Assembly: GCF_055900595.2 (NCBI RefSeq) | Contig: NZ_CM148325.1 | Length of the DNA: 64,000 nucleotides | Direction: 5' to 3' (one strand) | Shown: positions 29,590 through 34,787 of the stretch, in pieces | How positions within the stretch are numbered: the stretch's first letter is position 1 | Layout: each line of letters opens with the position of its first letter | Position numbers and translations under genes: made by a program | The notes under the pieces: model-generated | Told to the model about the DNA's origin: nothing | The model's input: the letters and a program-made list of their open reading frames with translations, nothing else | Database searches by the model: none

Positions 29590-31725
29590 TTGCTTAATCC
29601 GATCGTTCGTAAATTCCAGTACGGCCAACACACCGTGACTCTGGAAACCGGCATGATGGCTCGTCAGGCTACTGCCGCTGTTATGGTTAGCATGGATGAC
29701 ACCGCGGTATTCGTTACCGTTGTTGGTCAGAAAAAAGCCAAACCAGGTCAGGACTTCTTCCCGCTGACCGTTAACTATCAGGAGCGTACCTACGCTGCTG
29801 GTCGTATCCCGGGTAGCTTCTTCCGTCGTGAAGGCCGCCCAAGCGAAGGCGAAACGCTGATCGCGCGTCTGATTGACCGCCCGATTCGCCCGCTGTTCCC
29901 GGAAGGTTTCGTCAACGAAGTTCAGGTTATCGCCACCGTGGTTTCTGTTAACCCGCAGGTTAACCCGGATATCGTCGCGATGATTGGTGCTTCTGCTGCG
30001 CTGTCTCTGTCTGGTATTCCGTTCAATGGTCCGATTGGTGCTGCCCGCGTAGGTTACATCAATGACCAGTACGTACTGAACCCGACTCAGGACGAGCTGA
30101 AAGAGAGCAAACTGGACCTGGTTGTTGCCGGTACAGAAGCTGCCGTGCTGATGGTTGAATCTGAAGCTGAACTGCTGAGCGAAGACCAGATGCTGGGCGC
30201 AGTGGTGTTCGGTCATGAACAACAGCAGGTTGTTATTCAGAACATCAATGAACTGGTGAAAGAAGCCGGTAAACCGCGTTGGGATTGGCAGCCGGAGCCG
30301 GTAAACGAAGCGCTGAACGCGCGCGTTGCTGCGCTGGCTGAAGCTCGTCTGAGCGATGCTTATCGCATTACCGACAAACAAGAGCGTTATGCGCAGGTTG
30401 ATGTCATCAAATCTGAAACCATCGCGACGCTGCTTGCTGAAGACGAAACCCTGGACGAAAACGAACTGGGTGAAATTCTGCACGCTATCGAGAAAAATGT
30501 TGTTCGTAGCCGCGTACTGGCAGGTGAACCGCGTATCGACGGTCGTGAAAAAGATATGATCCGTGGTCTGGATGTGCGTACTGGCGTGCTGCCGCGTACT
30601 CACGGTTCTGCGTTGTTCACCCGTGGTGAAACGCAGGCACTGGTTACCGCAACGCTGGGTACTGCACGTGACGCACAGGTTCTTGATGAACTGATGGGCG
30701 AACGTACTGACACCTTCCTGTTCCACTACAACTTCCCTCCGTATTCCGTAGGTGAAACTGGCATGGTCGGTTCTCCGAAGCGTCGTGAAATTGGTCACGG
30801 TCGTCTGGCGAAGCGCGGCGTGCTGGCAGTAATGCCGGATATGGACAAATTCCCGTACACCGTACGTGTAGTGTCTGAAATTACCGAATCCAACGGTTCT
30901 TCTTCTATGGCTTCCGTGTGCGGTGCGTCTCTGGCGCTGATGGACGCAGGTGTGCCAATCAAAGCTGCTGTTGCGGGTATCGCAATGGGTCTGGTGAAAG
31001 AAGGCGACAACTACGTTGTACTGTCTGACATTTTGGGCGACGAAGATCACCTGGGCGATATGGACTTCAAAGTTGCGGGGTCCCGCGACGGTATCTCTGC
31101 ACTGCAGATGGATATCAAAATTGAAGGTATCACCAAAGAGATCATGCAGGTTGCGCTGAATCAAGCTAAAGGTGCGCGTCTGCATATCCTGGGCGTCATG
31201 GAGCAGGCGATCAACGCGCCGCGTGGTGATATCTCTGAGTTTGCACCGCGTATCCATACCATCAAGATCAATCCGGACAAGATCAAAGACGTTATCGGTA
31301 AAGGCGGTTCTGTTATCCGTGCCCTGACCGAAGAAACTGGCACTACCATCGAAATCGAAGATGACGGTACTGTGAAGATCGCAGCGACCGACGGCGAGAA
31401 GGCGAAAAACGCTATTCGTCGTATCGAAGAGATCACTGCAGAAATCGAAGTGGGTCGCGTCTACAATGGTAAAGTGACCCGTATCGTTGACTTTGGCGCG
31501 TTTGTTGCCATCGGCGGCGGTAAAGAAGGTCTGGTCCACATCTCTCAAATCGCCGACAAGCGTGTTGAGAAAGTGACCGACTACCTGCAGATGGGTCAGG
31601 AAGTACCGGTGAAAGTTCTGGAAGTCGATCGCCAGGGCCGTATCCGTCTGAGCATTAAAGAAGCGACTGAGCAGTCTCAACCTGCTGCAGCACCGGAAGC
31701 TCCGGCTGCTGAACAGGGCGAGTAA
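29590..31725 (+). CDS. pnp: Polyribonucleotide nucleotidyltransferase (PNPase)
   Basis: 711 aa from TTG at 29590 ([16 protein letters not shown]...); ORF-track start 29503 is an upstream in-frame extension into the leader. Confidence 0.9.
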
Positions 31726-31736
31726 GGTTGCCATTT

Positions 31737-31763
31737 GCCCTCCGCTGCGGCGGGGGGCTTTTA
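31737..31763 (+). terminator. Terminator-like hairpin after pnp
   Basis: gccctccgctgcggcggggggctttt. Confidence 0.5.
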
Positions 31764-31833
31764 ACCGGGCAGGACGCCTTGTTAGCAACCGGGAACAGGA
31801 CGTTCATTCAACCGTGGTCTTCGGGAGTGGGAA

Positions 31834-32718
31834 ATGAAGCCTTTTTTGCGCTGGTGTTTCGTTGCGACAGCACTTACGCTTGCAGGATGCAGTAATACTT
31901 CCTGGCGTAAAAGTGAAGTCCTCGCGGTACCATTGCAACCGACTTTGCAGCAGGAAGTGATTCTGGCACGTATGGAACAAATCCTTGCCAGTCGGGCTTT
32001 AACCGATGACGAACGCGCACAGCTTTTATATGAGCGCGGAGTGTTGTATGATAGTCTCGGTCTGAGGGCATTAGCGCGTAACGATTTTTCGCAAGCGCTG
32101 GCAATCCGACCGGATATGCCTGAAGTATTCAATTACTTAGGCATATATTTAACGCAGGCAGGCAATTTTGATGCTGCCTATGAAGCGTTTGATTCTGTAC
32201 TTGAGCTTGATCCAACTTACAACTACGCGCACTTGAATCGCGGGATCGCATTATATTACGGCGGTCGTGACAAGTTAGCGCAAGATGATCTGCTGGCGTT
32301 TTATCAAGACGATCCCAATGATCCTTTCCGTAGTCTGTGGCTTTATCTCGCCGAGCAGAAGCTCGATGAGAAGCAGGCTAAAGAAGTGTTAAAACAGCAC
32401 TTCGAAAAATCGGATAAGGAGCAGTGGGGATGGAACATTGTCGAGTTCTACCTGGGCAACATTAGCGAACAAACGTTAATGGAAAGGCTCAAGGCGGACG
32501 CAACGGATAACACCTCGCTCGCTGAGCATCTCAGTGAAACCAACTTCTATTTAGGTAAGTACTACCTAAGTCTGGGGGATTTGGACAGCGCCACGGCACT
32601 GTTCAAACTGGCGGTTGCCAACAACGTTCATAACTTTGTTGAGCACCGATACGCATTGTTGGAATTATCGCTCCTGGGCCAGGACCAAGATGACCTGGCA
32701 GAATCGGACCAGCAATAG
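31834..32718 (+). CDS. nlpI: TPR-repeat outer membrane lipoprotein NlpI
   Basis: 294 aa ORF with lipobox LTLAGCS. Confidence 0.95.
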
Positions 32719-32824
32719 CTGACGTACACATCAGCCCGTAATCTTTTTTGATTGCCATCACCTTAACGGGTGAGGGCGTTGTTGTTCGTTAATACACCTA
32801 CTTTGAGCCGGTTCACACTTTTCA

Positions 32825-32905
32825 ATGAAAATTGCTGATCAATTTCATGATGAGTTATGTAGACTGGCCGCCATTAATTTTGAGGCACACGTACTACATG
32901 GCTGA
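32825..32905 (+). CDS. yrbN: Small protein YrbN (26 aa) overlapping the deaD start
   Basis: ATG at 32825 gives [26 protein letters not shown], stop TGA at 32903-32905; recalled as the annotated small ORF upstream of deaD. Confidence 0.5.
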
Positions 32906-34787
32906 ATTCGAAACCACTTTTGCAGATCTGGGCCTGAAGGCTCCTATCCTTGAAGCCCTTAACGATCTGGGTTACGAAAAACCATCTCCAATTCAGGCAG
33001 AGTGTATTCCACATCTGCTGAATGGCCGCGACGTTCTGGGTATGGCCCAGACGGGGAGCGGAAAAACGGCAGCATTCTCTTTACCTCTGCTGCAAAATCT
33101 TGATCCTGAGCTGAAAGCACCACAGATTCTGGTGCTGGCACCGACCCGCGAACTGGCGGTACAGGTTGCTGAGGCAATGACGGATTTCTCTAAACACATG
33201 CGCGGCGTAAACGTGGTTGCCCTGTACGGCGGCCAGCGTTATGACGTGCAATTACGCGCCCTGCGTCAGGGGCCGCAGATCGTTGTCGGTACTCCAGGCC
33301 GTCTGCTGGACCACCTGAAACGTGGCACTCTGGACCTCTCTAAACTGAGCGGTCTGGTTCTGGATGAAGCTGACGAAATGCTGCGCATGGGCTTCATCGA
33401 AGACGTTGAAACCATTATGGCGCAGATCCCGGAAGGTCATCAGACCGCTCTGTTCTCTGCAACTATGCCGGAAGCGATTCGTCGCATTACCCGCCGCTTT
33501 ATGAAAGAGCCGCAGGAAGTACGCATTCAGTCCAGCGTGACTACCCGTCCTGACATCAGCCAGAGCTACTGGACTGTGTGGGGGATGCGTAAAAACGAAG
33601 CGCTGGTACGTTTCCTGGAAGCGGAAGATTTTGATGCGGCGATTATCTTCGTTCGTACTAAAAACGCGACTTTGGAAGTGGCAGAAGCTCTTGAGCGTAA
33701 CGGCTACAACAGCGCTGCACTGAACGGTGACATGAACCAGGCGCTGCGTGAGCAGACTCTGGAACGCCTGAAAGATGGTCGTCTGGATATCCTGATTGCG
33801 ACCGACGTTGCGGCCCGTGGCCTGGACGTTGAGCGTATCAGCCTGGTAGTTAACTACGATATCCCGATGGATTCCGAGTCTTACGTTCACCGTATTGGTC
33901 GTACAGGCCGTGCGGGGCGTGCTGGTCGTGCGCTGCTGTTCGTTGAGAACCGCGAGCGTCGTCTGCTGCGCAACATTGAACGCACTATGAAGCTGACCAT
34001 TCCGGAAGTAGAACTGCCGAACGCAGAGCTGCTGGGCAAACGCCGTCTGGAAAAATTCGCCGCTAAAGTACAGCAGCAGCTGGAAAGCAGCGATCTGGAT
34101 CAATACCGTGCACTGCTGAGCAAAATTCAGCCGACTGCAGAAGGTGAAGAGCTGGATCTCGAAACTCTGGCAGCCGCACTGCTGAAAATGGCACAGGGTG
34201 AACGTACTCTGATCGTGCCGCCAGATGCGCCGATGCGTCCGAAACGTGAATTCCGTGACCGTGATGACCGTGGTCCGCGCGATCGTAACGACCGTGGCCC
34301 GCGTGGCGACCGTGAAGATCGTCCACGTCGTGAACGTCGTGATGTTGGCGATATGCAGCTGTACCGTATTGAAGTGGGCCGCGATGATGGTGTTGAAGTT
34401 CGTCATATCGTTGGCGCGATTGCTAACGAAGGTGACATCAGCAGCCGTTACATCGGTAACATCAAGCTGTTTGCTTCTCACTCCACCATCGAACTGCCGA
34501 AAGGTATGCCGGGTGAAGTGCTGCAACACTTTACGCGTACTCGCATTCTCAACAAGCCGATGAACATGCAGTTACTGGGCGATGCACAGCCGCATACTGG
34601 CGGTGAGCGTCGTGGCGGTGGTCGTGGTTTCGGTGGCGAACGTCGTGAAGGCGGTCGTAACTTCAGCGGTGAACGCCGTGAAGGTGGTCGTGGTGATGGT
34701 CGTCGTTTCAGCGGCGAACGTCGTGAAGGCCGCGCGCCGCGTCGTGATGACTCTACTGGTCGTCGTCGTTTCGGTGGTGATGCGTAA
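32898..34787 (+). CDS. deaD: Cold-shock DEAD-box ATP-dependent RNA helicase DeaD (CsdA)
   Basis: ATG at 32898 gives [16 protein letters not shown]..., 629 aa; motifs [25 protein letters not shown]; RGG-rich C-terminus. Confidence 0.9.

Follow-up and report, generated by a model that had tools for sequence, protein, structure and literature searches.

The main RNA helicase of the E. coli cold-shock response is DeaD (CsdA), whose expression is tightly controlled via an unusually long mRNA leader. Just where this leader gives way to the helicase gene lies a very small open reading frame, yrbN, whose stop codon falls inside deaD itself. Does this frame encode a protein that works in its own right, does its translation govern the gene that it runs into, or is it a by-product of an RNA conserved for other reasons? 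We address this question here with a window of 64,000 nt (the whole stretch of DNA that was analysed, from contig NZ_CM148325.1 of RefSeq assembly GCF_055900595.2), whose positions are used throughout.

yrbN and its overlap with deaD

Read directly from the window, the yrbN ORF opens with the ATG at 32825–32827 and continues for 26 codons to a TGA at 32903–32905 (CDS 32825..32905, + strand). Its coordinates and translation in the ORF list agree with the 26-aa frame that an earlier note had proposed from this ATG. The deaD (csdA) CDS occupies 32898..34787 on the same strand: the frame is open to 34787, the RefSeq start is equivalent to 32898, and DeaD relatives align from residue 1. With the deaD ATG at 32898–32900 and the yrbN TGA extending to 32905, the final 8 nt of yrbN (ATGGCTGA) are therefore shared with deaD as its first 8 nt. 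The stop ends 5 nt beyond the G of the deaD ATG and the two frames differ, just as the earlier note had described; the deaD frame is shifted downstream by one base relative to that of yrbN, such that position 1 of each deaD codon corresponds to position 2 of a yrbN codon. We counted 65 ORFs of at least 20 aa within 4 kb around yrbN, and a small ORF of 26 codons is by itself not special; it is conservation that raises yrbN above chance.

The gene order in the E. coli window is pnp, nlpI, yrbN, deaD, mtr, and RefSeq gives precisely this CDS the label 'protein YrbN' in all but one of 5426 complete E. coli genomes (5425). At the NZ_AP018784.2 locus (L001), for instance, the yrbN CDS WP_010723222.1 has coordinates equivalent to 32825–32905 and deaD begins 8 nt before its end; the ORF there translates to the same 26 residues. 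The DNA of the window at yrbN is 100% identical to that of annotated genomes. The 301 nt around yrbN are at least 99% identical in 5424 of the 5426 complete RefSeq E. coli genomes, with nlpI, yrbN and deaD as the features under the match, and the element is single-copy and at least 99% identical across 5425 E. coli genomes. One of the 5426 complete genomes lacks a match to the yrbN region, one genome carries two copies, and one copy is found on a plasmid record. Against the NCBIfam equivalog NF033440 (small_YrbN), the peptide scores 76.3 bits (cut-off 33, E = 9.4e-22), with residues 1–26 aligned to profile positions 1–26 of 26. Its score over the full model, its position between nlpI and deaD, and its identity to the annotated E. 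coli protein all place it in this family. The earlier note had named the small ORF as the annotated YrbN, and this proved accurate: locus, position, length and peptide are identical to those of YrbN of E. coli K-12 (NF033440; UniProt C1P618; WP_010723222.1), with no difference between them, and the two are the same gene. A Pfam search with the YrbN peptide gave no family, an Rfam 15 scan of 31600–33100 with E up to 1 gave zero matches, and no paralogue of yrbN was found at the DNA level elsewhere in E. coli. A tagged YrbN product has reportedly been detected.

As an annotated gene with a curated family and a published overlap, yrbN is already known, and its identification here is correct but ordinary. 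Both the 26-aa gene and its 8-nt overlap with deaD appear in a 2021 preprint on the csdA/deaD leader (10.1101/2021.03.08.434349), which credits Hemm et al. 2008 with naming yrbN a small-protein gene. The Figure 2 legend of VanOrsdel et al. 2018 (PMC6001520) labels a cold-shock-induced small protein 'yrbN_PAIR_0', and the main text of that paper apparently names this protein YnfR, a neighbour of a cold-shock gene. What is new here is the distribution of yrbN, its modest coding signal, and the predicted RNA pairing of codons 11–17 with the Shine-Dalgarno sequence and AUG of deaD. A structural account of why codons 11–17 are conserved would be a small addition to a known gene.

Conservation of the frame across Enterobacterales

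To survey relatives, one scan of species-representative genomes was made with the DeaD N-terminus and yielded 80 loci. A yrbN ORF of 18–26 codons with an ATG at the equivalent place is kept in 30 of 30 Enterobacterales species (31 of 31 sequences). These include, among others, Escherichia albertii, Citrobacter, Kluyvera, Hafnia, Edwardsiella, Serratia, Yersinia, Erwinia, Tatumella, Brenneria and Budvicia, as well as Photorhabdus, Morganella, Arsenophonus and Proteus. Among the scanned loci, no yrbN-like uORF was found upstream of deaD in Pasteurellales, Orbales, Alteromonadales or more distant Gammaproteobacteria. In reduced symbionts yrbN is degenerate.

The place at which yrbN ends is less uniform than the place at which it begins. 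Counted from the deaD start (n = 31), the last base of the stop is +8 in 19 taxa, +11 in six and −1 in one, such that in 26 of the 31 the stop lies within a few nucleotides of the downstream start, as in coupled gene pairs. The remaining five taxa (Erwinia psidii, E. persicina, Tatumella ptyseos, Rosenbergiella gaditana and Acerihabitans arboris) terminate just before or inside the deaD Shine-Dalgarno sequence, within 16 nt upstream; their ORFs encode 18–19 aa, lack the last 7–8 residues and do not overlap deaD. At four of these loci (L016, L019, L024 and L027) the stop is about 16 nt before the deaD ATG, and at the fifth (L025) the stop TGA overlaps the GAGG. Since these five taxa stop before the deaD start, the yrbN-deaD overlap is not universal. 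A single base (TAC vs TAA) separates Rosenbergiella epipactidis from R. gaditana, and R. epipactidis reads on to the usual stop.

Two further uORFs were seen at deaD starts. An uncultured Enterobacterales MAG carries a divergent 22-codon uORF (MKIVSCFLDNKYQRIDVNCGGM; L032, 1430–1499) that ends 2 nt before the deaD ATG, and Candidatus Pantoea edessiphila carries an unrelated-looking 17-codon uORF (L040, about 1451–1504) that overlaps the start by ATGA. A uORF at the deaD start thus seems to be retained even in lineages whose YrbN sequence has degenerated.

How strongly does selection act on the encoded peptide? The yrbN frame is without a stop for at least 18 codons in 31 of 31 sequences, whereas the other two frames contain 39 (the deaD frame) and 49 stops in the same 48-nt block of 25 unique sequences. 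Within the yrbN frame, pN/pS is 0.59 over codons 2–10 and 0.32 over codons 11–16, against 0.89–0.94 and 0.58–0.75 in the other two frames. Length differences between conserved anchors in the 3' part are nearly all multiples of three, and the core shows synonymous third-position changes (CAT/CAC, GAT/GAC, TGT/TGC, GCC/GCT, AGA/AGG). Codon-position entropy over yrbN is weakly periodic, and a non-coding block right upstream of the ATG, at about 32802–32824, is as invariant as the best coding part. The coding signal of yrbN is modest. In Morganella and Proteus, residues 3–10 are unrecognisable, and Erwinia, Tatumella and R. gaditana have lost the C-terminal 8 residues; in both cases the frame and the pairing segment are nonetheless kept. 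Such loss or divergence of the peptide with retention of the frame is typical of a uORF whose translation, and not its product, matters. Given the conserved YrbN core and its synonymous changes, the peptide itself may still have a function.

The same region could have been read as an N-terminal extension of DeaD, as the deaD frame is open back to a TTG at 32832 in E. coli. We rejected this candidate: with its 39 stops among the 25 unique sequences and its higher pN/pS, the deaD frame shows that the region is not a DeaD N-terminal extension.

Predicted pairing between yrbN codons and the deaD start

The best-conserved codons of yrbN are 11–17 (UUA UGU AGA CUG GCC GCC AUU; LCRLAAI), for which two pairings, H1 and H2, are possible. 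Downstream of them, the heptamer GAGGCAC (32882..32888, +) is invariant in all aligned sequences; its GAGG (32882–32885) is the likely deaD Shine-Dalgarno sequence, and the heptamer also encodes yrbN codons 20–21 (Glu, Ala) and the first base of codon 22. The spacer from this GAGG to the deaD AUG is 12 nt in 18 taxa, E. coli included, and 9 nt in 13. Before the yrbN ATG itself, no Shine-Dalgarno sequence is recognisable.

In the predicted hairpin H2, the 5' arm UAUGUAG (32856..32862, +), which belongs to yrbN codons 11–13, pairs with the 3' arm CUACAUG (32894..32900, +), which is made up of the 4 nt preceding the deaD start codon plus that codon itself. Both arms are called from pairs in the alignment, from the minimum free energy (MFE) fold and from pair probabilities. 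The apical part of H2 (32870..32886, +), found in the consensus and single-sequence folds, joins GCC at 32870–72 to GGC at 32884–86 and covers two G of the Shine-Dalgarno sequence; its three pairs are invariant, so they are uninformative on covariation. In each of the 28 taxa that were folded, H2 is the MFE structure (−10 to −16 kcal/mol); its z-scores, −1 to −3, are modest, as is the energy z-score of the 111-nt region, −1.7. For E. coli, the pairs of H2 have a probability of about 0.9 at 37 C, which rises to 0.99 at 15 C.

All seven basal pairs of H2 can form in 23 of the 31 sequences, and six of the seven in the other eight. Proteus has UAUGUCA/UGACAUG, a compensatory double change from A-U to C-G, with a G-C / G-U / A-U series at the next pair, and metagenomic Proteus-, Morganella- and Providencia-like sequences agree with these changes. 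A pattern scan of metagenomes for Morganellaceae-type sequences returned 22 matches with three distinct genuine types and zero new covariation. Covariation in H2 comes down to virtually a single double change, confined to one lineage; the majority of its pairs are invariant and are therefore mute for or against the structure. With that reservation, the predicted RNA pairing would explain the conserved core LCRLAA.

The candidate long-range helix H1 was suggested by the RNAalifold consensus. Its 5' arm, GCCGGUU.ACA (32807..32817, +), is upstream of the yrbN ATG in the conserved block at about 32802–32824; its 3' arm, UGU.GACUGGC (32858..32868, +), which also draws on the alignment and pair probabilities, lies in yrbN codons 12–15 and overlaps the 5' arm of H2. 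The helix would enclose the yrbN start in a 40-nt A/U-rich loop. Across the alignment, 99% of its cells are paired, and four pairs vary on one side yet stay paired; there are zero double changes. We rejected H1 as the dominant fold, as its probability in E. coli is about 0.08, it is 3 kcal/mol worse than H2, and it shows no double compensatory changes. Since H1 and H2 share 32858–32862, they must be alternatives or, for the lower 6 bp of H1, could form a pseudoknot, and we keep H1 as a candidate alternative to, or pseudoknot partner of, H2.

The near-invariant non-coding block TTTGAGCCGGTTCACACTTTTCA (32802–32831 region) adjoins the yrbN ATG upstream, and H1 accounts for its first half. The yrbN start codon is centred in a perfect inverted repeat, TTTTCA-A-TGAAAA (32819–32831), a palindrome that H1 does not account for.

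Possible roles of yrbN in deaD expression

The setting in which yrbN would act is well described. Ojha & Jain 2020 (PMC7430678) found that deaD transcription starts mainly 838 nt upstream of its ATG, at window position 32060 inside nlpI, and mutation of the −10 element TATGAT cost ~90% of deaD expression. In our promoter scan, TTTATA-16-TATGAT is the only sigma-70-like site in 31950–32950; its −10 ends at 32052, which fits the published promoter (32025..32060, +, with the published start at −838). Because deaD transcription starts within nlpI, ~660 nt of the 'untranslated' deaD leader is the coding 3' part of nlpI. With the start 838 nt upstream, yrbN is inside the leader and fills its last 73 nt, which bears out the placement of the small ORF in a long deaD 5' leader by the earlier note. 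DeaD regulates its own expression through the stability of its mRNA and through Rho-dependent termination in this leader, at multiple termination sites; the Rho sites were mapped coarsely, and a 720-nt leader deletion that abolished regulation kept the last 100 nt, that is, the whole yrbN element (PMC7430678). A 2025 review (PMC12360218) calls the mechanism of cold antitermination at deaD undetermined. Our consensus scan found no intrinsic terminator in 31950–32950, the nlpI-deaD spacer included. The reporters of the 2021 preprint could not tell whether yrbN influences expression: the complete leader represses the reporter, and constructs with and without yrbN are equally repressed (10.1101/2021.03.08.434349). 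In an RNA-seq table from Erwinia amylovora (diguanylate cyclase comparison; PMC9371280), yrbN and a DEAD/DEAH helicase gene are both up, 3.6-fold and 3.8-fold respectively, a joint rise consistent with co-transcription.

The observed identity, position, conservation and base-pairing potential of the ORF suggest a role in cis. The reading that we favour, and to which we would give about an even chance, is that yrbN is an Enterobacterales-specific small ORF acting as a translational coupling device for deaD. The deaD start would be poor alone, as its GAGG is 12 nt from the AUG, and the AUG and two G of the Shine-Dalgarno sequence would be locked in the predicted H2 with yrbN codons 11–17. Ribosomes would initiate at the yrbN AUG, in an A/U-rich stretch and without a Shine-Dalgarno sequence; translation through codons 11–17 would melt H2; and termination at the UGA 3 nt after the deaD AUG would allow the same or a newly bound ribosome to initiate deaD. 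We favour coupling by unmasking and termination-reinitiation because of the distribution of yrbN, its coding signal, and the predicted pairing of codons 11–17 with the deaD start. Such coupling would also agree with a stop that is always in the deaD initiation region, with lineages in which the peptide sequence but not the frame is lost, and with conserved codons that serve twice. The coupling may also depend on temperature. Should yrbN open the deaD start, it would supply a missing translational layer of deaD control, for which one start-codon mutation is a simple handle.

A different reading takes the conserved peptide at face value: YrbN would be a trans-acting small protein, perhaps one that partners DeaD, the ribosome or the degradosome in cold adaptation, and the overlap would be operon compaction that ensures co-expression. 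The curated family NF033440 fits this, as do a core kept in Enterobacteriaceae, Erwiniaceae, Yersiniaceae, Hafniaceae and Budviciaceae with synonymous third-position changes and a pN/pS that is lowest in the yrbN frame. However, the top-conserved codons are exactly those of the RNA pairing segments, an equally invariant stretch before the ATG does not code, and the unpaired part has a pN/pS of 0.6, which for a functional protein would be weak constraint. The C-terminal third is cut by an early stop in five taxa, residues 3–10 have become unrecognisable in Morganella and Proteus, and the peptide has neither a Pfam domain nor an E. coli paralogue. On balance we consider a trans-acting role unlikely. 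At the opposite extreme, the frame might be incidental, with the region kept purely as RNA (H1/H2 and the deaD ribosome binding site) and yrbN not meaningfully translated. Invariant blocks that show no clear three-base periodicity, among them 25 nt before the ATG, speak for this, and the lack of a Shine-Dalgarno sequence before yrbN and the weak overall codon-position signal point the same way. Yet the ATG is present in 31 of 31 sequences, the frame has zero stops vs 39 and 49 in the others, length changes keep the frame, and of the three frames that of yrbN has the lowest pN/pS, also where it is unpaired; the small-protein gene report of Hemm et al. 2008, as relayed in the preprint (10.1101/2021.03.08.434349), also speaks against it. 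An incidental frame is therefore, in our judgement, extremely improbable.

Two other readings accept translation of yrbN and assign it a different consequence. If ribosomes on yrbN occluded the deaD Shine-Dalgarno sequence and AUG, yrbN would be a repressive, competing uORF, with relief when yrbN initiation drops. Both deaD elements do lie within the yrbN coding region; but the predicted default fold, H2, already masks the deaD start, so a translating ribosome would more likely open than close it. In overlapping bacterial genes, stops on or beside a start codon usually promote re-initiation, which is a further point against competition. Repression of the reporter by the complete leader would agree with a competing uORF, whereas equal repression of leaders with and without yrbN would not (10.1101/2021.03.08.434349). 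The earlier note had raised coupling and competition alike, as possibilities. Overall, the sequence evidence favours coupling over competition, which we regard as highly unlikely. Alternatively, yrbN translation might mainly set the fate of the transcript, the uORF being the sole ribosome-loaded stretch at the end of an otherwise untranslated leader and shielding the leader-CDS junction from Rho and RNase E, in the manner of tnaC, mgtL and similar uORFs. Rho-dependent termination and mRNA decay both control deaD via the 5' UTR, and the regulation-abolishing deletion retained the entire yrbN element; these points are compatible with shielding, as is the view of cold antitermination in the review (PMC7430678; PMC12360218). 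However, the determinants of autoregulation map upstream of the last 100 nt (PMC7430678), yrbN itself shows no terminator and no C-rich, G-poor tract resembling a rut site, and the peptide conserves neither a regulatory codon run nor an arrest motif. We find shielding distinctly unlikely; if it were true, the deaD mRNA level would be tied to translation capacity in the cold.

The last ~100 nt of the leader might form a three-segment RNA switch (32807–32817, 32856–32872 and 32884–32900, pairing as H1, H2 or a pseudoknot) that is read by the uORF, such that yrbN translation decides both the unmasking of deaD and its escape from Rho and RNase E. We rate this as a rather long shot; if true, it would provide a mechanism for DeaD autoregulation and for cold-induced antitermination at deaD.

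How does the locus compare with known systems? In translationally coupled overlapping pairs, such as the RNA phage coat and replicase genes or those of ribosomal-protein operons, the upstream stop overlaps or adjoins the downstream start, which is masked by structure with the upstream ORF. The arrangement here is similar in that the yrbN stop falls 3 nt after the deaD AUG and the deaD Shine-Dalgarno sequence is poorly spaced, at 12 nt; the predicted hairpin over the deaD Shine-Dalgarno sequence and AUG would likewise use upstream codons. Unlike the upstream member of such pairs, yrbN is no full-size gene but an ORF of 26 codons that closes an 838-nt leader, and its overlap is 8 or 11 nt vs the common 1 or 4 nt. 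Leader-peptide uORFs such as tnaC, mgtL and pheL (listed in PMC12360218) are also short, in long leaders under Rho-dependent control, and the predicted alternative pairings H1/H2 recall them. In contrast, yrbN is without a sensor codon run, arrest motif or terminator, its C-terminus is variable or truncated, and it ends inside deaD and not upstream of an attenuator; among the 31 aligned taxa, neither sensor codons nor an arrest motif is found at a fixed distance from the stop. A third comparison is with cspA-type cold-shock leaders, which serve as RNA thermosensors. The deaD leader presumably shares with them a cold-box-like motif, further upstream at 32720–32730. It also shares their length and a predicted structure over the Shine-Dalgarno sequence and AUG (Giuliodori et al. 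2010, as cited in 10.1101/2021.03.08.434349). Unlike cspA, the predicted masking hairpin of deaD gets more stable in the cold in the thermodynamic model, and the deaD element includes a probably translated uORF that is absent from cspA.

Two small elements lie further upstream in the leader. In the nlpI-yrbN spacer, a hairpin with UCACC/GGUGA arms and a 6-nt loop (32758–32773), followed by a conserved GGGC(U/G)UUnUUGUUCGUU, is kept across Enterobacterales with covariation: three of its five pairs change on both sides (CACC/GGUG, CAUC/GAUG, CGCC/GGCG), and of 500 shuffles just 2 attained its covariation score. The consensus scan gives no terminator call at this hairpin. Directly 3' of the nlpI stop, GCUGACGUACACAUCAGC (32718–32735) forms a GCUGA/UCAGC stem. 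Its loop region, TGACGTACACA (32720–32730), matches 10 of 11 bases of what we take to be the cspA 'cold box' (UGACGUACAGA). CTGACGA/TACA in the 32718–32735 region is conserved in other Enterobacterales. The primer-extension 5' end at −173 of Toone 1991, as cited in PMC7430678, corresponds to 32725 and falls within the cold-box-like motif.
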